DNA from: a virus
Taxonomy: Duplodnaviria > Heunggongvirae > Uroviricota > Caudoviricetes
Reading direction: 5' to 3' (one strand)
Virus record (IMG/VR): IMGVR_UViG_2609460221_000006
Location: 1 to 8,325 of that record
Length of the DNA: 8,325 nt
Shown: positions 1 through 8,325 of the stretch, piece after piece
How the letters are laid out: the number at the start of each line of letters is the position of its first letter
How positions within the stretch are numbered: position 1 is the first letter of the stretch
The notes under the pieces: model-generated
What the model was told of the DNA's origin: nothing
Database searches by the model: none
Seen by the model: only the letters and a program-made list of their open reading frames with translations
Made by a program: the position numbers and the translations under genes

Positions 1-907
1 GTGCATCATCTAACGGGATTTCATCGGTCATAATGGCAGATTGCGCTTCGCGTGATTGCTTAAGCCACCATTTAATGGTGTCCCGATCAATGACTCCGCC
101 AGCAGTTTCCAGATCGATAGTCTTACTAAATTCCGGTCCCATATCTCCGGTTTGCGGATCGAAAAATATTGCACCTATTGAGATAATCGGGGCATCTGGA
201 TTTTTTCCCATGGTTTCAAGGTCGATCATTAGATGGTCACACGTCCCGCTGGTGGATGTGCCTTTATGATGACCGTTCACCTTAACTGAGTGATCTGTCG
301 CCTCGCCAGTTTCACTATCGCTATCGTGATGCTGATTGCCGCCAGGGTTCTCCTTGTGTGGATGTTCAGTGCCTTCCATTTCCTCCGGATCATTTTCCTG
401 AACTTCAACCTGATTCTCTTCATTGAATGTTTCCTGGTATGTTGCGTCGCCCATCACCGCGCCACAATCAGGGCAGTTGCCGCCGCCGGTCTGACCGCAG
501 GCGGTGCAGATCTTTTCCGGTTCCTGTTGCACTACTGGTTCAGGTTGTTTCGTTTCTGGCTCGTTTTGTAACGCATTTGGGCTGTTTTGTTCCGCTTTCT
601 GGCCGTTCTGTTCCGTTTCTTGCTGGTTCTGGTTCACAGAATCGCGGGTTTCCATCCCCTTGACCCATTTCGGATCATTCGGGTCGCTAATCCCTGCAAC
701 AAATTCTCCGCGAGAGGCCGCAAGCAACTTATCGGCGTCAGGCTGGCTGATATTGGCTGCCTGCATAATTTTGTTTACTTCGTCAGCGGTAACTTTTACC
801 TGATTAACCGGATCTATCTGTGCCTGAGTATCCAGCGATTGCGTGTCCTGGCGATGTTCAGTTGTATTCGGCTCCATTGCTTCAGTCGTTGCCTGTTCAT
901 CTGCCAT
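1..907 (-). CDS. recE: RecE-family exonuclease VIII, downstream portion (partial, runs off the window; separated from the N-terminal ORF by a frameshift)
   Basis: Minus-strand frame open from ATG 907 to position 1, translating [30 protein letters not shown]...[30 protein letters not shown]...[16 protein letters not shown]... The [10 protein letters not shown] / [13 protein letters not shown] blocks match what I recall of the middle of E. coli RecE. The same frame is open upstream across the stop of the 936-2144 ORF. Confidence 0.6.
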
Positions 908-935
908 TGCGTCAGACGGTTGTGATTTTTCCTCA

Positions 936-2144
936 TTAATTTTTTTCTTCTTCTGTTTCGCGTTCAGCAGCCAGTTCGCGGTTAACTTCTTCCAGGATAT
1001 CTTTTTCCGGTGTATGTCGTGCAGCAGCGAGAGTTTCCTCGGTAGGGTTCTCGTGATCAGTTTCCGTCAAATAGGCGTTGATATACCCCTGAAGGCGTCC
1101 CGGGTAGTGATAAAATTCAGGGTGTGCGCTTCGGATAAGTGCAAAAATAGCGGCGCGGGAATAATCCAGGATACCCGGGATTGCGCGAAGTGCTGCGGAC
1201 CATTCTTTGAACGGACTTTCTTTCTTCCGGACGACTTCTTTTGCGCGACGATAAACGCTGCCCGGAATTTCATAAATATTAAAATCCATCGGAAGTGTGG
1301 CCGCTGCAATCTCCACATCCAGCGTATCGAAGGTGTGTACTAAATTCGGATTGCGATCGGTTTTGTTCCCTCCACCGGCATTAGCACCGGAAGCCGTGCG
1401 GGTGATGCGTGAAACACGATTTCCTTTCATCCACTCTTTTGTCAGCAGACCGCGATCGGTGTAGTCAGCGCCCAGGTATGCTTCGAAAAAAGCAGTCATC
1501 AGTCCCAGGTCTGAATTACCAGGATTAGGGAAAACTTTGTCCGTGTCACGAACCAGTTTGTGGAGATCGCGAATTTCCAGCGGTTCGAGTTGCGCTGCTT
1601 TATTTGAGATGGCCAGCGCGGTAACGGCGGGAAGTTTTTCATCCTGTGCGTTATGTAATGTGCGCAGTTCGTCCCGCGAAACGTGTGTGATCGGTTTTTC
1701 GCTGCCGTGCTGTGCCAGCCATCGAACAGGCAGAATCTGACCTGAAACCGGCAGGAGCATGTTCTCCTCAATCTCAGCCATGTCTTCGCCGTTGACGTTG
1801 GTATTGTCAGTGCTGGCTGGTTTATCCTGAACAGAGGGCGAGGGCGCGATAAGTACCATTGTGATACCATCTTCACCGCCCTTTTCGTATCGGTTGCAGA
1901 ATTCGGTATCAAACACGCCTTCCGGAGGAAGGTCATTCACAACGGGTAAATGGACGCGAACAGGTTTTTTAAAATCCTCTTTGTCAAATCCGGCATCGTC
2001 CATTGCGACAACACCGCGTGATATTGCAACCGATAATTTTTTTGCTGTGCGCCAGTAAAAACCGCCTTTAATTCCAAGACGTTTTCTGATTTTGTCATTT
2101 TTGGCTTCGTAATATAGTGCAATTTCTTCTTTATCAGTGCTCAT
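936..2144 (-). CDS. recE: RecE-family exonuclease VIII, N-terminal 402 aa (ends at TAA 936-938, probably prematurely)
   Basis: 402-aa ORF with blocks [111 protein letters not shown], recalled as the RecE N-terminal region. GAGG Shine-Dalgarno 8 nt upstream of ATG 2144. Confidence 0.8.
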
Positions 2145-2221
2145 TGATAAACCTCATTACAGATTTAAGGGTGAACAAATCCCTGCCATTGCTGGCATAT
2201 AAAAATGAAACCGGATATTAA

Positions 2222-2425
2222 TTACGGTGCTGTTTTAAGCCCCGCCGGGATTTCGTTATTGTCCATGTGAATAACTTTATCGACCGGATAACAGTTGCCG
2301 GGAATTTTCTGTTCCGCTGCGGCAGCCATGCATTCTTTCATTGAGTTGTACATGCCGGTGATTGCATCAAGCGACTCACCAGTATTGAGATGTACAGTCA
2401 GAATGAGTACGAATAATGTGTTCAT
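2222..2425 (-). CDS. Small hydrophobic protein, 67 aa, YdfD-like by position (tentative)
   Basis: ATG at 2425 overlaps the dicB stop (ATGA coupling); GGAGA Shine-Dalgarno upstream. N-terminal hydrophobic segment MNTLFVLILTVHL. Its position directly after dicB corresponds to ydfD in the Qin dicB operon; sequence identity to YdfD is not verified. Confidence 0.5.
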   Translation of the reverse strand: MNTLFVLILTVHLNTGESLDAITGMYNSMKECMAAAAEQKIPGNCYPVDKVIHMDNNEIPAGLKTAP

Positions 2426-2610
2426 CGCCACTCTCCGAAAATACCGAGTTTAAGAAGGGCAATTCTGGAGAGTATGGAATTGTCATTCAGCAGGTAGGGT
2501 TCATATTTTCTCATATTGATTGCATCCTCGGTGAAATCCCTGTTACTGAGCAGAACACCAATATTAAAGCACCCGTCAGACGTATTAACGTTTGGTAGTG
2601 ACGTTTCCAT
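2422..2610 (-). CDS. dicB: Cell-division inhibitor DicB homologue, 62 aa
   Basis: Translation METSLPNVNTSDGCFNIGVLLSNRDFTEDAINMRKYEPYLL... matches the recalled DicB signature (LPNVNTSEGCFEIGV...FTEDAINKRK) at the same 62-aa length. GAGGA Shine-Dalgarno 7 nt upstream of ATG 2610; lies just downstream of DicF as in Qin. The ORF track's longer 97-aa version (to 2715) has no support for its N-terminal extension. Confidence 0.8.
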   Translation of the reverse strand: METSLPNVNTSDGCFNIGVLLSNRDFTEDAINMRKYEPYLLNDNSILSRIALLKLGIFGEWR

Positions 2611-2779
2611 TATCGCGTCCTCAACAATGAATTTTGTGATGCGGTGCCTGGTGCCTCCAGGTGACGTTAACCAGTTAACAATTAACGCCGGATACAGAGA
2701 ATCCACCCATAACACTGTTTTTGGTTTTAACTGTTCCGCGTGCGCTCAGCCGCATTCACCACATCACAAAATTCACTTT

Positions 2780-2822
2780 AAAAAGGGCGGCAGAGCAGTC
2801 ACGGAGTAAAACTGATACCGCC
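2780..2822 (-). terminator. Intrinsic terminator hairpin forming the 3' end of DicF
   Basis: Minus strand GGCGGTATCAG...CTGCTCTGCCGCC stem-loop followed by a run of 5 U (plus-strand A 2780-2784). Probably leaky, since dicB lies downstream in the same operon. Confidence 0.6.
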
Positions 2823-2837
2823 AAAAGTCACCAGAAA
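2785..2837 (-). ncRNA. dicF: DicF small RNA (Hfq-dependent ftsZ-targeting sRNA processed from the dicB operon transcript)
   Basis: Minus-strand sequence TTTCTGGTGACTTTTGGCGGTATCAGTTTTACTCCGTGACTGCTCTGCCGCCC followed by TTTTT, matching the 53-nt DicF as I recall it apart from one possible substitution. Ends in a GGCGG...CCGCC hairpin plus U-tract. The 5' end is processed, so it is approximate. Confidence 0.85.
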
Positions 2838-3172
2838 ATTGATAACAGAGGGCGTTGCAGCGGAGTTGTCACTTAAGCGTATGGTCAACCTGACAACCCG
2901 GTGTCCTCAACGGGGGAAGGAATAACCCCGCCATACTTACCGCCGCGCCATTTCGCGGATTGCCACAACCGGAAGCGCACGGTCGACGAAAATTTAACGA
3001 CAGGCTATCTATGAACCAGCTACCTCGCCGTGCGCTTTCGCGTTATGGTCTGACTTTTCAGGGAAATATCCTTTCAGTAAACTGTCAGTGCCGGATGCTC
3101 ACCCGTGTCCGGCGCACGCACTCCACCTCACCCGTGGAGAACTCCTTAATCACCAACCCTCAGGAGGGTGAA

Positions 3173-3448
3173 ATGTCGACTGAAAATGATGAAATCATTA
3201 ACTCCCTGATACGCCAGATTAATAATTTTGATAAAGCATTGCAACATGCTGCGGCGCGTAGTGATATAACTCTTTTAGCAATTTCATTTCTTGCATCTGT
3301 TATGGATAAAAATGAAGTCGTACGACAGAGTCTTGTTGATTATATCGACTCGCTTCAACCCGGCACTTTCAATCATGAGAGCTTCAATCATGAGAAAGAG
3401 CATGTTAAGTCTGTAATTAATTCTCTTATTTTGAATCAAAAGAATTAA
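3173..3448 (+). CDS. Hypothetical protein, 91 aa, in an AT-rich island (unknown function)
   Basis: Strong Shine-Dalgarno CAGGAGGGTGAA directly before ATG 3173. The in-frame upstream part of the ORF-track call (2960-3172) is GC-rich with no RBS and is rejected. Base composition drops sharply at 3173. Predicted mildly acidic and helical, with an FNHES-FNHE tandem repeat; no motif I recognise. Confidence 0.6.
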   Translation: MSTENDEIINSLIRQINNFDKALQHAAARSDITLLAISFLASVMDKNEVVRQSLVDYIDSLQPGTFNHESFNHEKEHVKSVINSLILNQKN

Positions 3449-3746
3449 TGCTTTTTGTTGCAAAGTAATTTTCAAGGGGTTCTATTCGAATCCCTTTCTT
3501 TTTCATTAACAAGCCAAACCCCTTATCAATGATGTCCATTAGATCCAGGAAGTATTTTTCATGTAAATCCTGGTTATCAGAGAGCTGCTTCTCTTCGTAC
3601 AGCCCGATAAAGGCTCGGCGTACGTTACCGGATATATTGTCGATGGTTTCTTTTTCTACGGTACTCAGGTCAAGAGTCGCCAGTTGAGAGCGAACCACAT
3701 TCGATGCCATTTCCTGGAATGGTACTGGTAAATCTTTAAATTCCAT
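3426..3746 (-). CDS. Hypothetical protein, 106 aa, in the AT-rich island (unknown function)
   Basis: ATG 3746 is preceded by GAGGT at good spacing. An alternative ATG at 3758 overlaps the upstream gene's stop (TGATG) and gives 110 aa. Co-oriented with the dicB operon, convergent with 3173-3448 and overlapping its 3' end by 23 bp. Acidic, helical, no recognisable catalytic motif. Confidence 0.6.
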   Translation of the reverse strand: MEFKDLPVPFQEMASNVVRSQLATLDLSTVEKETIDNISGNVRRAFIGLYEEKQLSDNQDLHEKYFLDLMDIIDKGFGLLMKKKGIRIEPLENYFATKSINSFDSK

Positions 3747-3757
3747 CGTCAACCTCA

Positions 3758-3910
3758 TCAGTCAGTGTTTCTGGTTAACCAGCGACGCGCGCCAGCTTCA
3801 GTTTTAAACGTTTTGCTTCTGGTATATGTCATCGCGGTAAACGTGCCGTCCTGGTTGGGAAACACGCCGCATACCAGAGATTCGTTGTTGCCAAGCTCGA
3901 TAGTATCCAT
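3758..3910 (-). CDS. Small protein, 50 aa, YdfA-like (DUF1391-like, tentative); first gene of the leftward operon
   Basis: ATG 3910 has a GAGGT Shine-Dalgarno 5 nt upstream. The longest ORF starts at 3991 (77 aa) but with a weaker RBS. Product MDTIELGNNESLVCGVFPNQDGTFTAMTYTRSKTFKTEAGARRWL resembles, from memory, the ~51-aa YdfA that heads the Qin dicB operon. Confidence 0.5.
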   Translation of the reverse strand: MDTIELGNNESLVCGVFPNQDGTFTAMTYTRSKTFKTEAGARRWLTRNTD

Positions 3911-4091
3911 GCTGACCTCATTTCCCCTTAACGCCGGGGTAGCGGAACAAAAACCTGCTGCATAGTTATTAAAGTTGAACCCTGCCGTCATGTTCTTACG
4001 CCTCGGGCTGGCTACTTAACCCCTGACCACTGCCGGGTAACTCGAAGTATTGCCTGGCGTTCTGTGGGGCGGGGTGGGTTGATGAATGAAC

Positions 4092-4131
4092 AATACCACT
4101 ACTATTTAATTATGTAAATAGCAGTGCTATT
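4092..4131. promoter_or_regulatory. Leftward (PL-like) operator region: two copies of a 16-bp AAATAG-N4-G(C/G)TATT site in opposite orientations
   Basis: 4116-4131 is AAATAGCAGTGCTATT on the plus strand; 4092-4107 reads AAATAGTAGTGGTATT on the minus strand. Together they form a 30-bp near-palindrome (4097-4126). The same motif occurs twice in the repressor/cro intergenic region. Lies upstream of the leftward operon, with TTTACA / TATTGT-like hexamers nearby on the minus strand. Confidence 0.45.
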
Positions 4132-4142
4132 ATCGTGGCAAG

Positions 4143-4164
4143 AAAAAAAACCACCCGAAGGTGG
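4143..4164 (-). terminator. Rho-independent terminator ending the paaR2-paaA2-parE2 operon
   Basis: Minus strand CCACC-TTCG-GGTGG hairpin immediately followed by 8 U (plus-strand A 4143-4150), 17 nt downstream of the parE stop. Confidence 0.7.
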
Positions 4165-4180
4165 TTGTTGACAGGAAGGA

Positions 4181-4471
4181 TTAACAGGTTTTGTTTGGAT
4201 ACTGTCTTCGTGAGTGAACTACATTTACGATCTCGATGTTAGATGCTGTTACTCGGTAAAGTATTATGTAGTTAGGATGAGTCACTATCTCACGAAGACT
4301 TGGAACTCTTTCGCTCGGTGGGTACAGATAAGGGTGTTCAGTAAGTGACAAAACTGATGTTTCAATGCGTATTTTTAGTCTACGTGCAGCGGGAGGGTTT
4401 TCCTTAGCAATATAGGCTACGATCTGACGTAAATCATCACGTGCAGAAGGTAGCCATAAAATGGGCAGCAT
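4181..4471 (-). CDS. parE2: ParE/RelE-family type II toxin, 96 aa (ParE2-like)
   Basis: Translation MLPILWLPSARDDLRQIVAYIAKENPPAARRL...REIVTHPNYIILYRV...IEIVNVVHSRR shows the ParE/RelE pattern. Start overlaps the stop of the upstream antitoxin ORF, a typical toxin-antitoxin arrangement. Confidence 0.85.
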   Translation of the reverse strand: MLPILWLPSARDDLRQIVAYIAKENPPAARRLKIRIETSVLSLTEHPYLYPPSERVPSLREIVTHPNYIILYRVTASNIEIVNVVHSRRQYPNKTC

Positions 4472-4662
4472 TACTCACTCCTGTTCGTTGCAGCTAATTG
4501 AGCAATAAGGTTTTCCATTTCAGCCATTACTTCGTCATGTGGAATTGCAGGACGGGGATCTGAGAGGCTTGCTGCCACTTTGGTTCGCAACCATTCGTTA
4601 TAGCTGTTTTCTTGTTCGACTGTTTCAAATTCAGAAATTATCGGGGAAAGGGCTGTACTCAT
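4471..4662 (-). CDS. paaA2: Small antitoxin, 63 aa (PaaA2-like), partner of ParE2
   Basis: 63-aa acidic ORF immediately upstream of, and coupled to, the ParE gene. GAGGAGG Shine-Dalgarno 7 nt before ATG 4662. Size and context fit the PaaA2 antitoxin of the paaR2-paaA2-parE2 module described in E. coli O157:H7 prophages; the name is by synteny and recall. Confidence 0.7.
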   Translation of the reverse strand: MSTALSPIISEFETVEQENSYNEWLRTKVAASLSDPRPAIPHDEVMAEMENLIAQLAATNRSE

Positions 4663-4679
4663 GTTTTTACCTCCTCAGA

Positions 4680-5181
4680 TTAGGCGCGACGACCCTTTTG
4701 CGCAGCTAGCCATCGCGCAACGATTTCTTCAATTGATTCTTTTTTCTCCTTCATTTCCTTAAGCATTTTCTCTTTATCTTCTTTGGGGAAAGCCCTGAAC
4801 GTCTGGAGCAAATCCCGCTCCATGGGGTCTATATTAAACGGAAGTTCGTTTTCCGATTGTTCCATATCTGCAGATATAGTGACAACATTGTCCTCCCCAG
4901 ATTCTTGGGGATACATCCTTACAATTTGTAACAACTCGGCCATATCTGGTCTGATTGACTCGGGAGGAACTTGCAGCAACCCTGCGAACTTGATAACAGC
5001 CTCAAGATTTAAAGGTGTCTGACCATTTAGATAATGGCTTACAGCTCCCTGTGTCGAAAATCCCAGAATTTCTGCCGCACGCTCTTGGGTTAACCCTAGT
5101 TGAATTTTTTTTCGCCGTCCAGATTTCTTTCAGTCTCTGGGCGGCTTGCAGGTCGATCTCTGACAGGGATTTTCTTTTCAT
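4680..5181 (-). pseudogene. paaR2: Lambda cI-like HTH repressor (PaaR2-like), reading frame broken in an A8 run
   Basis: ATG 5181 with GAAGG Shine-Dalgarno gives MKRKSLSEIDLQAAQRLKEIWTAKK, then the frame is lost in the A8 run (plus-strand T 5105-5112). The -1 frame continues (KK)IQLGLTQERAAEILGFSTQGAVSHYLNGQTPLNLEAVIKFAGLLQVPPESIRPDM... to TAA 4680. The joined N-terminus closely resembles the lambda CI N-terminal domain ([27 protein letters not shown]...). The intact-frame tail is the 4680-4979 ORF in the track. Confidence 0.75.
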
Positions 5182-5288
5182 ACCTTCAATTCTAATAAGA
5201 TTATTAATCTCTTTGAAATAGTGATGCTATTTACTTTTAAAAATAACAATGCTATTAATGATCGTGATGACATCACATGAGGTGAACA
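5182..5288. promoter_or_regulatory. Divergent promoter/operator region between the cI-like and cro-like genes (PRM/PR analogue)
   Basis: Two direct copies of the 16-bp motif, AAATAGTGATGCTATT (5216-5231) and AAATAACAATGCTATT (5241-5256), 25 bp centre to centre. A 13-bp perfect palindrome GTGATGACATCAC (5264-5276) and TAATAA-GA-TTATTA (5193-5206). Candidate rightward promoter TTTACT-N17-TATTAA. GAGGTG Shine-Dalgarno before ATG 5289. Confidence 0.55.
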
Positions 5289-5564
5289 ATGAATCTTGGA
5301 GAATATTTGCATCATTCCGGTATAACTCAGAAGCATTTTGCTGAAATTGTTGGGGTAACCCAAGGGATGGTAAGCCATGTCATTACCGGACGGGCGAAAC
5401 TTACGGGGAAAAAAATTTTACGCTGGTGCGAAGCAACAGGCTGGATAGTAACTCCGCACGAGATTGATGGCAGTACTTATCCCAACCCAACCGACGGCTT
5501 ACCTGTCGAGTATCAGGCTAACACACAACCAGAGGCGGGGGTGATTCATGAAAATCAAGCATGA
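5289..5564 (+). CDS. ydaS: Cro-like HTH DNA-binding protein, 91 aa (YdaS-like)
   Basis: HTH segment ITQKHFAEIVGVTQGMVSHVITG. Divergent from the cI-like gene across an operator-rich spacer; Shine-Dalgarno GAGGTG at 5279-5284. Confidence 0.8.
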   Translation: MNLGEYLHHSGITQKHFAEIVGVTQGMVSHVITGRAKLTGKKILRWCEATGWIVTPHEIDGSTYPNPTDGLPVEYQANTQPEAGVIHENQA

Positions 5565-5584
5565 ACACATCCGCATGGCAATGA

Positions 5585-5974
5585 ATGCCTGGGCGCATCC
5601 GGACGGCGAAAAAAGTACCGGCTGCGAAAATTACCAAAGCGTATTTCGAGCTGGGAATGACGTTCCCGGAACTGTATGACGACAGCCATCCGGAAGCCCT
5701 GGCCCGTAATACCCAGAAAATTTTCCGTTGGCTGGATAAAGACACCCCTGATGCTGTTGAAAAAATGCAGGCTCTGTTACCGGCGATCGAAAAGGCGATG
5801 CCGCCTTTGCTGGTGGCCCGTATGCGCAGCCACAGTTCTGAATATTACCGTGAGATCGTCGAACGGAGGGATCGGCTGGTGAAGGATGTCGATGATTTTG
5901 TTGCGTCAGCGGTTGTTTTGTATGACCAGATGAATCGCGGCGGCCCGGCAGGGAATGCTGTGGTGATGCACTAA
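5585..5974 (+). CDS. ydaT: YdaT-like (CII-analogue) protein; longest intact frame shown, native start probably ATG 5548 with a frameshift in an A6 run
   Basis: The 129-aa ORF from ATG 5585 has no Shine-Dalgarno and begins right after an in-frame TGA. ATG 5548 has a strong GAGGCGGGGG RBS and overlaps the cro-like stop; it encodes MKIKHEHIRMAMNAWAHPDGEK and then leaves the frame at the A6 run 5609-5614. One A fewer would give a ~140-aa product, the size I recall for YdaT. The gene name is by synteny with Rac ydaS-ydaT. Confidence 0.6.
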   Translation: MPGRIRTAKKVPAAKITKAYFELGMTFPELYDDSHPEALARNTQKIFRWLDKDTPDAVEKMQALLPAIEKAMPPLLVARMRSHSSEYYREIVERRDRLVKDVDDFVASAVVLYDQMNRGGPAGNAVVMH

Positions 5975-5996
5975 AAGCACGGTGTTCGGGGGTTTT

Positions 5997-6959
5997 ATGA
6001 GCAGCAAGCTTCATGGTCTTGTCTGGGAAGGGTGCGCCTTCACCGGCATGATCTTATCCAGGGTGGCGGTTATGGCCCGTCTTGCAGACTACAGCAATGA
6101 CGAGGGCGTGTCATGGCCTGCCATTGAAACTATCCGGCGTCAGATCGGTGCAAGAAGTGAATCCACAGTGAAATCGGCTATTGCAGAACTGGCGAAAGAG
6201 GGCTGGCTGACGAAGGAAGAGCGTAAGGTCGGTGGGCGTAATGTAAGCAATATCTATCGGCTTAATGTGGAAAAACTCGAAGCAGCTGCGGCGGCGGCGC
6301 GTGAGTCATATAAACCGAAAAGAAAAATTAGCCCGGCAAAAAATGACCCGTTAACAGTTGACCCGTCAAATATTGCCCCCTCAACGGTTGACCCGTCAAA
6401 TTTTGATGGATCAACTGTTGATAAAAAACTGCCGATTAGGGGGGCGATGATTGACCCCGATCCGTCAGTATTAAAACCTGATCCGTCAGATAAAAGATCT
6501 TCTTGTCCGGACGCTTCGCAACCGGACCCGCAGACGGCTGAACAGGATTTTTTAACCCGACACCCTGACGCGGTTGTGTTCAGTGCGAAAAAACGCCAGT
6601 GGGGAAGTCAGGAAGATTTGGTGTGCGCACAGTGGATCTGGGGACGAATCGTGAGTCTTTACGAGCAGGCGGCCAGCTATGATGGCGAGATCACTAGACC
6701 GAAAGAACCCAACTGGACAGCATGGGCCAATGACGTTCGCACAATGCGGATGCTGGATGGCAGAACTCACAGACAAATTTGTGAAATGTTTGGGCGTCTC
6801 CAGCGGGATTCGTTCTGGGTAAAAAACATCATGAGTCCGGCAAAACTCCGGGAAAAATGGGATGAACTGGTTATCCGCCTGGGGCGTTCGCCTGCGCAGC
6901 GTTGCGTGAATCACATTTCTGAACCGGACACTGAAATACCGCCGGGATTCAGGGGGTGA
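5997..6959 (+). CDS. Replication initiator, lambda O analogue (YdaU-like), with origin iterons inside the gene
   Basis: 321-aa ORF from ATG 5997 (GGGGG upstream); GTG 5982 is an alternative start. N-terminal winged-helix-like region ...VSWPAIETIRRQIGARSESTVKSAIAELAKEGWL. The central coding region carries tandem DNA repeats that encode the repeated TVDPSN / DPS peptides. Sits between the cII-like gene and the DnaC-like loader. Confidence 0.7.
   Translation: MSSKLHGLVWEGCAFTGMILSRVAVMARLADYSNDEGVSWPAIETIRRQIGARSESTVKSAIAELAKEGWLTKEERKVGGRNVSNIYRLNVEKLEAAAAAARESYKPKRKISPAKNDPLTVDPSNIAPSTVDPSNFDGSTVDKKLPIRGAMIDPDPSVLKPDPSDKRSSCPDASQPDPQTAEQDFLTRHPDAVVFSAKKRQWGSQEDLVCAQWIWGRIVSLYEQAASYDGEITRPKEPNWTAWANDVRTMRMLDGRTHRQICEMFGRLQRDSFWVKNIMSPAKLREKWDELVIRLGRSPAQRCVNHISEPDTEIPPGFRG
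6356..6489. repeat. Iteron cluster: putative replication origin within the O-like gene
   Basis: AGTTGACCCGTCAAAT at 6356-6371 and GGTTGACCCGTCAAAT at 6386-6401 (each containing the inverted pair TTGAC/GTCAA), TGTTGATAAAAAA at 6417-6429, and GATCCGTCAG at 6458-6467 and 6480-6489. Iterons inside the initiator gene are the lambda ori arrangement. Confidence 0.55.
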
Positions 6960-6965
6960 CGTGTC

Positions 6966-7712
6966 ATGAAAAACATTGCGGCAGTTGGGGTTCTTGAACG
7001 TATTCGCAGACTTGCACCACAGGGGTCGGTTCCACCGTACCGGACGGTGGAGGAGTGGCGGGAATGGCAACTTGCTGAAGGACGAAAACGCAGCGAGGAG
7101 ATTAACCGCCAGAATCGCCAGTTGCGGGTGGAAAAAATCCTGAATCGTTCGGGCATCCAGCCTCTGCACAGCAAATGCTCGTTTGCAAATTATCAGGTGC
7201 AGAACGACGGGCAAAAATACGCGCTGAGCCAGGCCAAATCCATAGCTGACGAACTGATGACCGGGTGCACGAATTTTGTGTTCAGCGGTAAAACCGGCAC
7301 CGGGAAAAATCACCTTGCAGCGGCGATGGGCAACCGGCTGATGGTGAAGGGGCGCAGCGTGATTATCGTCACCGTGTCTGACGTCATGAGCGTGTTGCAT
7401 GACAGCTACGACAACGGCAAATCCGGGGAAAAATTTTTACAGGAGCTTTGCGGGGTTGATTTGCTGGTCCTGGATGAAATAGGCGTTCAGCGGGAGACGA
7501 AAAACGAGCAGGTGGTATTGCACCAGATAATTGATCGCCGGACAGCATCACTGTGCAGTGTCGGGATGTTAACAAACCTGAATCATGCCGCAATGAGTAC
7601 GCTTCTTGGTGAGAGGATTATGGACCGCATGACCATGAACGGTGGTCGATGGGTGACGTTTAACTGGGATAGCTGGCGTCCAAATGTCAGCAATATGAGG
7701 GTTGTGAAGTAA
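6966..7712 (+). CDS. ydaV: DnaC-like helicase loader / IstB-like AAA+ ATPase, 248 aa (YdaV-like)
   Basis: Walker A FSGKTGTGKNHLAAAMG and Walker B DLLVLDEIG. AGGGGG Shine-Dalgarno before ATG 6966, which follows the O-like stop by 6 nt. Confidence 0.85.
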   Translation: MKNIAAVGVLERIRRLAPQGSVPPYRTVEEWREWQLAEGRKRSEEINRQNRQLRVEKILNRSGIQPLHSKCSFANYQVQNDGQKYALSQAKSIADELMTGCTNFVFSGKTGTGKNHLAAAMGNRLMVKGRSVIIVTVSDVMSVLHDSYDNGKSGEKFLQELCGVDLLVLDEIGVQRETKNEQVVLHQIIDRRTASLCSVGMLTNLNHAAMSTLLGERIMDRMTMNGGRWVTFNWDSWRPNVSNMRVVK

Positions 7713-7733
7713 TTTTGTCCGGAGGAAATTTTA

Positions 7734-8325
7734 ATGGAAACCGTATCTGACGCACTGAAAGCACTGAAAAAAGCCTCTTCACATGTGGTGGCAGCTCGCC
7801 TTGGAATCAGTCGTGAAGAGGCTGTCAACGAGCTGTGGGAACTCAAAAGAAAAGGCGTCGTTGATAAAACTGGTCACACCTGGTTTCTGGCTGGCGAAGG
7901 TGAATCCCGGGTAACCGAAGAGCGGCCAGTAAAATCTGAAGCACAGGATATGCTGACCGGGGAGGTCGAACAAAAAGTTACCGCAGACATGATGATTGAG
8001 TTTATCGGTCAGGATGGGGCTAAAACGTGTGAGGAACTGGCGGGTAAGTTCAGTGTCAGTACTCGCAAGGTTGCTTCCACGCTGGCGGTGGTAACCGCAA
8101 CGGGGCGGCTGGCACGCGTTAATCAGAACGGTAAATTTCGTTACTGCATGCCGGGCGATAATTTACCAGCAGAGCCGAAAGCCGCGCTGGTAACGGAAAG
8201 TGATGGTAAGGCCTTTCCTCAGCCAGCAGGTGCTGCGTTACCAGTCCGGGAAGCCGCAACACAGGAAGAAATTAAAACAGAAACTGTGGCGGACATTGTG
8301 CAGCCGTTGCCATCGTTTACCGAAA
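7734..8325 (+). CDS. Hypothetical prophage protein, partial (runs off the right edge), with two winged-helix-like segments
   Basis: GGAGGA Shine-Dalgarno 7 nt before ATG 7734; frame open to the window end (197 codons), so it is absent from the ORF track. Translation METVSDALKALKKASSHVVAARLGISREEAVNELWELKRKGVVDK...CEELAGKFSVSTRKVASTLAVVTATGRLARV. Corresponds in position to the gene after ydaV in Rac. Confidence 0.6.
   Translation, partial: METVSDALKALKKASSHVVAARLGISREEAVNELWELKRKGVVDKTGHTWFLAGEGESRVTEERPVKSEAQDMLTGEVEQKVTADMMIEFIGQDGAKTCEELAGKFSVSTRKVASTLAVVTATGRLARVNQNGKFRYCMPGDNLPAEPKAALVTESDGKAFPQPAGAALPVREAATQEEIKTETVADIVQPLPSFTE

Follow-up and report, generated by a model that had tools for sequence, protein, structure and literature searches.

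Where would the replication origin of a Rac-like lambdoid prophage of Escherichia coli lie, and which part of the initiator protein would be matched to it? The question is raised by an 8,325-nucleotide stretch of viral DNA (IMG/VR record IMGVR_UViG_2609460221_000006, positions 1 to 8,325; hereafter, the window), which is part of such a prophage and carries the gene of an O-like replication initiator. Lambdoid phages are textbook examples of an origin placed inside the initiator gene, and a preliminary description of the window, made from its letters alone, had placed origin-like repeats in the middle of this gene, in the manner of ori-lambda in gene O. We found at this place a phased array of palindromic sites that is constrained as DNA, is tied to the winged-helix N-terminal domain (N-domain) of the initiator, and occupies the position of ori-lambda. 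As judged from sequence comparison, these repeats are probably the iterons of the prophage's replication origin, set, like ori-lambda in gene O, in the linker-coding middle part of the initiator gene. The initiator as their binder, the place where the DNA opens, helicase recruitment, and origin firing are predicted by analogy with known systems.

An array of 15-bp palindromic units in the initiator gene

The gene and its sites are as follows.
5997..6959, plus strand: replication initiator gene, O-like, 320 amino acids (aa), which houses the repeats (open reading frame (ORF) and translation; PHROG phrog_391; RefSeq WP_032283173.1)
6343..6429 (approximate), no strand: array of tandem 15-bp units built on the palindromic core TTGA-N4-TCAA (unit scan, Tandem Repeats Finder, core count)
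6343: array unit 1, ATGACCCGTTAA, degenerate
6358: array unit 2, TTGACCCGTCAA, perfect core
6373: array unit 3, TTGCCCCCTCAA, one mismatch
6388: array unit 4, TTGACCCGTCAA, perfect core
6403: array unit 5, TTGATGGATCAA
6418: array unit 6, TTGATAAAAAAC, half-site only
6457..6468, no strand: downstream site 1, CCGATCCGTCAG, core CGA-N4-TCA, with GATC (repeat search; homologue codons)
6478..6489, no strand: downstream site 2, CTGATCCGTCAG, core TGA-N4-TCA, with GATC (repeat search; homologues)

The preliminary description had reported a pair of 16-bp repeats 30 bp apart with TTGAC/GTCAA arms, two copies of a further repeat, and an A-rich tract, all in mid-gene. The pair is present at 6357 and 6387 (GTTGACCCGTCAAAT at 6357–6371 and 6387–6401, 30 bp apart), and its core, TTGACCCGTCAA, has the arms TTGAC/GTCAA. 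The further repeat, GATCCGTCAG, was likewise recovered at 6459–6468 and 6480–6489, 21 bp apart. Although each element is in place, the account was incomplete, as the pair represents the best copies of an array with a period of 15 bp. When mismatches were tolerated, copies of TTGACCCGTCAA were found each 15 bp, at 6328, 6343, 6358, 6373, 6388, and 6403, while Tandem Repeats Finder delimited an array at 6332–6421 with a period of either 15 bp (5 copies) or 30 bp (3 copies). Both GATCCGTCAG copies fit the core of the array, as CGA/TGA-N4-TCA. The sites thus comprise three perfect cores, one core with a single mismatch, one degenerate unit, one half-site, and the two downstream sites. Of the A-rich tract, only short A-runs stand (6421–6427 and within 6311–6342); the region is just ~55–60% A+T and has no lambda-type AT-rich block.

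The repeats are more frequent than chance would provide. Of the palindrome TTGA-N4-TCAA, the 8.3-kb window has exactly three copies, each of them inside the array, against 0.27 expected; GAYCCGTCA was found four times against 0.12 expected, a count reached in 0/200 shuffles. The array is in frame and encodes the pentapeptides NDPLT VDPSN IAPST VDPSN FDGST VDKKL. The sites at 6343–6489 correspond to aa 116–164 of 320, between the HTH_36 domain (aa 25–71) and the region homologous to the lambda O C-terminal domain (C-domain; aa 153/182 onward). Their placement in the middle of the gene had been described correctly; this part encodes the linker.

A scan of the IMG/VR database gave only copies with an identical N-domain, and these served to determine the allele at position 6376 and the stability of array length within E. 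coli. Array length was stable among the 80 near-identical copies. Position 6376 is A in 67 of them, which makes the unit at 6373 a perfect TTGACCCCTCAA, while the window carries the minority C. This C replaces Asp with Ala and turns the perfect TTGACCCCTCAA into TTGCCCCCTCAA; it may slightly weaken the window's copy of the origin.

The array accompanies the N-domain in all homologues

The initiator is divided into the following parts.
5997..6290, plus strand: N-terminal winged-helix DNA-binding domain, aa 1 to ~98, presumed reader of the iterons (Pfam HTH_36)
6540..6893, plus strand: C-terminal domain, a homologue of that of lambda O, presumed to recruit helicase or loader (BLASTP, tblastn)
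6894..6956, plus strand: C-terminal tail AQRCVNHISEPDTEIPPGFRG, like the last 21 residues of E. coli DnaT (phmmer against PDB)

The N-domain was aligned with those of four phage homologues, among which it is 63–65% identical (alignment A1), and one genome per bacterial species was then scanned. The scan yielded 80 loci across Enterobacterales, with an N-domain identity of 53–77%. After combining scan loci with phage loci, dropping truncated genes and keeping non-identical sequences, 79 distinct homologue genes were available for comparison.

The preliminary description had proposed to look for the repeats, and for their phasing, in homologous initiator genes, and both were found. An in-frame array of 15-bp units lies immediately 3' of the N-domain in 79/79 homologues, and the array gives way to a conserved block in which two or three more sites stand. 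Exact TGA-N4-TCA cores reach a density of 18.8 per kb in the central region, compared with 0.37 per kb over the remainder of the gene. They are always in one frame, and neighbouring cores are spaced 15 bp apart in 150/232 pairs. Measured from the first GATCC site, 255/257 exact cores lie at 10 mod 15, with gaps of 55, 70, 85, or 100 bp; this 15-bp phase is kept even though the number of exact cores per homologue ranges from 1 to 6. Of the 79 homologues, 62 also have a second GATCCNTYA site, mostly 24 bp from the first. The encoded peptides are of the SD[APTG]SK type in most homologues and of the IDPSN/VEGST type in the window's subgroup.

What lies beyond the array differs from homologue to homologue. 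The C-domain is of the lambda-O type in 22 homologues and of the Phg_2220_C type in 57, a DnaC-like gene is found downstream in only 2/79, and the upstream genes vary too. The array is thus linked exclusively to the N-terminal DNA-binding domain, while the C-domain and the neighbouring genes are swapped freely. The DnaC-type loader, which had been named as a neighbour of the repeats, does adjoin the initiator gene in the window, but this arrangement is peculiar to its lineage. In phage mEp460, whose N-domain is unrelated, the exchange point falls at ~6505, just past the last site, and the DNA is nearly the same from there on.

Initiators with other N-domains bear central repeats of their own. 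Lambda, our positive control, has four copies spaced at 20–24 bp, the mEp460 initiator has five at 23–24 bp, and the Edno5 initiator has 3–5 copies of ATCCCAAAATTGGGAT at 24 bp.

At two loci in E. coli chromosomes (L083 and L086), aa 1–79 of the initiator are fused in frame to unrelated sequence, forming a 455-aa ORF, and the array is absent. This may be the ymfN-type fusion of the defective e14 prophage, which would make it an origin-less remnant.

Constraint acts on the DNA and not on the peptide

In the N-domain, synonymous sites are essentially randomised across the homologue sample: in the 45 columns whose amino acid is conserved, the most frequent codon makes up just 53% on average. In the array units, by contrast, serine is encoded by TCA in 254/261 cases and lysine by AAA in 201/201, and T stands at the wobble position of the first codon in 95% of the units despite a varying amino acid (S/F/P/T/A/Y); since the first and last units were picked by exact core, these core positions are somewhat inflated, yet the contrast with the N-domain is still very large. 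The centre codon is free (GCA, CCG, GCG, GGG, ACA, and others). Codon choice is equally narrow in the downstream block, with GAT in 79/79 homologues, CCG in 74/79, TCA in 69/69 (the remaining ten having TTA), GTA in 73/75, TTT in 69/69, and GAA in 62/62. Overall, TCA makes up 54% of the serine codons in the central region versus 15% elsewhere.

The encoded peptide, meanwhile, is variable: DPS, DAS, DTS, DGS, EGS, EGL, and DPP all occur. Both TTGACCCCTCAA and its exact reverse complement TTGAGGGGTCAA are found in arrays, coding for DPS and EGS, respectively. In the window's subgroup, TTGAC is always accompanied by CCN (19/19) and TTGAG always by GGN (10/10). Conserved arms around a free centre are what a duplex binding site predicts, while a constraint on the peptide predicts no such pattern. 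Because synonymous positions are near-fixed, the peptide varies, units stand in both orientations, and synonymous sites of the N-domain are scrambled, we conclude that the constraint acts on the DNA and not on the peptide. Its tie to the DNA-binding domain makes this the signature of iterons.

Comparison with known origins

The array shares several properties with ori-lambda. In both, the part of the initiator gene that houses the repeats is the linker joining the DNA-binding N-domain to the C-domain; the single repeats show internal dyad symmetry; homology to the C-domain sets in where the repeats end; and N-domain and repeats behave as one exchangeable specificity module. The lambda GenBank record places the four ori iterons at 39034–39118, and the tblastn match to lambda starts at 39118, the end of iteron 4. 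Since the match starts where iteron 4 ends, the repeats of the window occupy the place of ori-lambda in the gene. The order of genes is also that of lambda (a cro-like gene, a gene at the cII position, the initiator, and the loader), the neighbours in the window being the following.
5289..5564, plus strand: Cro-like helix-turn-helix (HTH) regulator (YdaS-like), which opens the rightward early operon (Pfam HTH_3; RefSeq 'helix-turn-helix transcriptional regulator')
5585..5974, plus strand: YdaT-family gene at the cII position, directly 5' of the initiator gene (Pfam YdaT_toxin, E 2e-10; RefSeq annotation)
6966..7712, plus strand: DnaC/IstB-type AAA+ helicase-loader gene (Pfam IstB_IS21 (PF01695), E 7e-19; phrog_50 'DnaC-like helicase loader', E 8e-82)

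The proposed likeness to ori-lambda stands for position and C-domain homology, and does not extend to the N-domain family or, as far as the stability profile shows, to a strongly AT-rich unwinding block. The units of the window abut at 15 bp, whereas the 18-bp iterons of lambda are spaced at 20–24 bp, and the core is TTGA-N4-TCAA rather than ATCCCTCAAAACGAGGGA. The loader is of the DnaC/IstB type and not of the lambda P family. The N-domain of lambda O matches Phage_rep_O (PF04492; E 6e-36); that of the window initiator matches HTH_36 instead, at aa 25–71, with 27.9 bits against a cutoff of 25, besides a weak match to DnaD_N. A close homologue also matches GntR, MarR, PaaX, and winged-HTH models. 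No likeness between the two N-domains was detected by hhalign (probability 0.1%, with a shallow profile). On these profile comparisons, the N-domain of the initiator is outside the lambda O N-domain family.

The C-domain does resemble that of lambda O. In BLASTP, aa 153–300 align with aa 145–277 of lambda O at 35% identity over 148 aa (E 5e-26), and a tblastn search of the phage collection gave matches to this part in lambda, phi80, H-19B, BP-4795, and others. In PHROG, each half of the protein matches phrog_391, 'replication initiation O-like' (N part, E 4e-34; C part, E 7e-69). The tail AQRCVNHISEPDTEIPPGFRG matches DnaT (PDB entries 2ru8, 6aep, and 9zbt; E 1.5e-4, phmmer). The DnaT tail and the initiator tail each stand directly upstream of a dnaC or dnaC-like gene. 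An ending of the form ..IP(P/A/E)GFRG is also carried by initiators with unrelated domains (K-12 YdaU, mEp460, PhiR49_1, and Phi06_2987) and by about half of the 79 homologues. O-like proteins that combine an HTH_36 domain with a DnaT C-terminal (DnaT_C) motif are already on record (PMC5509034). The way in which DnaT recruits DnaB/DnaC is still called unknown in PMC13377028.

The Rac prophage of K-12 has the same layout as the window: a YdaS-like gene, a YdaT-like gene, the initiator, and a DnaC-like loader of the YdaV type. Its initiator, YdaU, differs in having a DUF1376 N-domain and other repeats, and the origin specificity of the window accordingly differs from that of Rac. The central repeats of K-12 ydaU (L002, 5472–5578) are of the AAGCAGATGTTCAA type (AGATGTTCAA-type), in four copies at 33, 33, and 12 bp, beside which stands a perfect 11-nt inverted copy, ATGTTCAAACA/TGTTTGAACAT. 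Rac has been reported to have an active origin, oriJ (PMC3945230). It is plausible that oriJ lies here, inside ydaU.

DNA stability, GATC sites, and folding

A nearest-neighbour profile places all of the initiator gene's least stable stretches within 6300–6510, at 6302–6331, 6399–6428, and 6459–6508. They have ~60–70% A+T, flank or interrupt the sites, and are not extreme when compared with the whole window. One of them enters the feature list.
6459..6508, no strand: candidate unwinding segment, predicted (least stable 50 bp of the initiator gene; GATC at 6459, 6480, and 6496)

The region 6453–6510 aligns with the codons that overlie the AT-rich region of lambda. The segment 6459–6508, which has that position and only ~60% A+T, is a weak candidate for the place of unwinding. 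More AT-rich DNA is found at 5190–5260, between the divergent repressor-like and cro-like genes (the promoter region), where the two promoter-like sites of our scan also fall. Despite the likeness of TTGAC to a -35 hexamer, the scan found no sigma-70-like promoter and no terminator in the array or near it. The window showed no excess of DnaA boxes (14 found, 16 expected).

GATC sites are found at 6409, 6459, 6480, and 6496. Four sites in 90 bp are weak clustering by themselves, with the window-wide count at chance, and the clustering is meaningful only because the homologues show it too: over the 79 homologues, GATC density is 19.7 per kb in the 105-nt downstream block versus 3.3 per kb elsewhere in the gene. 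Dam-methylatable GATC repeats are a feature of iteron origins such as E. coli oriC (13-mers) and P1 oriR. As in these origins, the conserved pair of GATC repeats falls where the element is least stable; the window differs from them in having no DnaA-box excess and repeats of unrelated sequence. A role of Dam/SeqA at the conserved GATC pair is a conjecture. As a raw count, a gene for an N6-adenine methyltransferase is found ≤2.5 kb downstream of the initiator in 55/79 loci. The window itself contains no such gene; in one related prophage, a DNA methyltransferase gene stands ~6.5 kb downstream.

Folded as a single strand, 6320–6510 is far better than shuffled sequence (z = -5.3), as is the equivalent region of PhiR49_1 (z = -4.6). 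Folding was nevertheless rejected as a discriminator, since the ori-lambda positive control folds equally or more strongly (z = -7.1).

Alternative explanations

Could the sites serve some other end? They might bind the initiator, or another protein, for autoregulation, to block transcription into the dnaC-like gene, or for copy-control 'handcuffing', with the origin located elsewhere. The sequence evidence indicates sites of a protein-binding type and is silent on what binding achieves; moreover, no strong AT-rich unwinding element stands beside the sites, and the DNA at 5190–5260 is richer in A+T. That DNA, however, is the divergent intergenic region with the two promoter-like sites. The sites stand at the position equivalent to ori-lambda, each initiator type examined has its own array there, including lambda, in which the array is the annotated origin, and the array stays with the N-domain of the initiator while upstream regulators vary. 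We therefore consider a non-origin role unlikely. Conservation might instead mark a recombination junction, the central linker having been homogenised among mosaic lambdoid phages by module exchange. Exchange of the C-domain just 3' of the repeats, between the lambda-O and Phg_2220_C types, agrees with this, as does mEp460, which shares nearly the same DNA from ~6505 onward despite its unrelated N-domain. Yet the mEp460 junction comes after the repeats and not inside them, and recent common ancestry would have kept all positions, whereas here TGA and TCA are near-invariant and the 4-bp centre is free. With units in both orientations, and a 15-bp phase that is constant over 1 to 6 exact cores, homogenisation at a junction is quite improbable.

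Two further explanations place the function outside of duplex DNA. A low-complexity pentapeptide linker (of the DPSN/DASKS type), generated by slippage and selected as protein alone, would account for an in-frame array of 5-aa repeats in an inter-domain linker rich in Pro, Ser, and Asp, with a copy number that differs between species. It is contradicted by the codon analysis, in which the peptide is poorly conserved and the synonymous or wobble bases are near-fixed while those of the N-domain are scrambled, and we hold it to be very improbable. Lastly, a single strand of the element might do the work in folded form, whether as structured mRNA or as a hairpin or cruciform in DNA. The z scores of the window and of PhiR49_1 are in line with such folding, but arrays of palindromic sites are expected to fold so, as the ori-lambda control does, and the variation in copy number and unit centres leaves no conserved scheme of long-range pairing; this explanation is hardly credible.

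A model for initiation and its weak points

If the repeats are the iterons of the prophage origin, initiation may be pictured as follows. Rightward early transcription through the cro-like, ydaT-like, initiator, and dnaC-like genes would supply the initiator and would also traverse the origin. Initiator dimers would bind the palindromic TTGA-N4-TCAA cores through the N-terminal winged-helix domain. Occupation of four to six abutting sites at 15-bp spacing (6343–6429), together with the two GATC-containing sites (6457–6489), would form a nucleoprotein complex, and strain from this complex would open a nearby stretch of low stability, for which 6459–6508 is the best candidate. The lambda-O-like C-domain and the DnaT-like tail would then recruit the host's DnaB together with the DnaC-type loader of the adjoining gene.

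Several points weigh against this interpretation. Binding by the initiator, unwinding, and origin activity are predictions from sequence. A lambda-like, strongly AT-rich block of 40 bp was not found beside the sites in the stability profile, and the best unwinding candidate, with ~60% A+T, is within the least stable 8% of 50-bp windows window-wide. A spacing of 15 bp between abutting sites is unusual for iterons, for which 19–24 bp is typical. As for its register, the binding unit may be TGA-N4-TCA or, conserved just as well, the junction TCAAAATCTGA (TCAA-N3-TTGA). The homologues are related, so the codon counts represent non-independent events, and the minority C at 6376 weakens one core of the window.

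A more specific proposal is that the origin has a distinct architecture and is not a copy of that of lambda. Abutting palindromic sites each 15 bp (~1.4 helical turns), with their register strictly maintained, would allow the initiator to polymerise into a continuous filament that spirals around the DNA, the conserved, Dam-methylatable GATCCGTCAG pair would bracket the opening segment, and firing would be gated by adenine methylation or SeqA, often via a Dam-type methyltransferase encoded downstream. We put this forward tentatively and regard it as rather doubtful.

The iteron reading would locate the probable origin and the specificity determinant of a replication module that is present in many E. 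coli genomes, with related modules across Enterobacterales. The locus is also a clear case of dual coding, open to checking, in which the preservation of DNA-binding sites shapes a protein linker. For annotation, TGA-N4-TCA each 15 bp followed by the GATCCGTCAG pair provides a signature of origins in such prophages. The general picture of lambdoid replication is unchanged, and the finding is an expected one. No description of this iteron family was found in the literature searched, which did not cover the older oriJ and lambdoid literature; the text of a paper dealing with replication regions in non-lambdoid Stx phages names neither an origin of replication nor repeats.

Prophage context and minor observations

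Many E. coli chromosomes match the region 5900–7100 with 100% identity, and at least 80% of this stretch is held by 1,513 of 5,426 complete genomes. At the matching loci, the order of genes in RefSeq starts with an exonuclease, DUF1482, DicB, several small genes, and a leftward HTH repressor-like gene. It continues with the rightward HTH (Cro/YdaS-like) gene, the YdaT-family gene, the initiator gene (5997–6959), the gene of an 'ATP-binding protein' (6966–7712), and that of a DUF1627 protein. The product of 5997–6959 is named 'helix-turn-helix domain-containing protein', and the start of the YdaT-family gene is set further upstream than in our list, at ~5549.

The minus strand contains an ATG-started ORF of 282 aa (6552–7400) that runs opposite much of the dnaC-like gene and the 3' portion of the initiator gene. 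It is not annotated by RefSeq in matching genomes and is probably a chance open frame.

The left side of the window (1–2750) was compared with L170. The best whole-window matches span only 84% of the window, in two pieces. The longest minus-strand ORF on the left has 402 aa (936–2144), while related prophages have a 2.4-kb exonuclease gene at this place; for this reason, the recE-like gene may be rearranged or disrupted in the window's copy. In the region that matches the exonuclease gene, at 545–628, we also found a 21-bp tandem repeat in four copies with 71% matches and the consensus TTGTTCCGCTTTCTGGCTCGTT.

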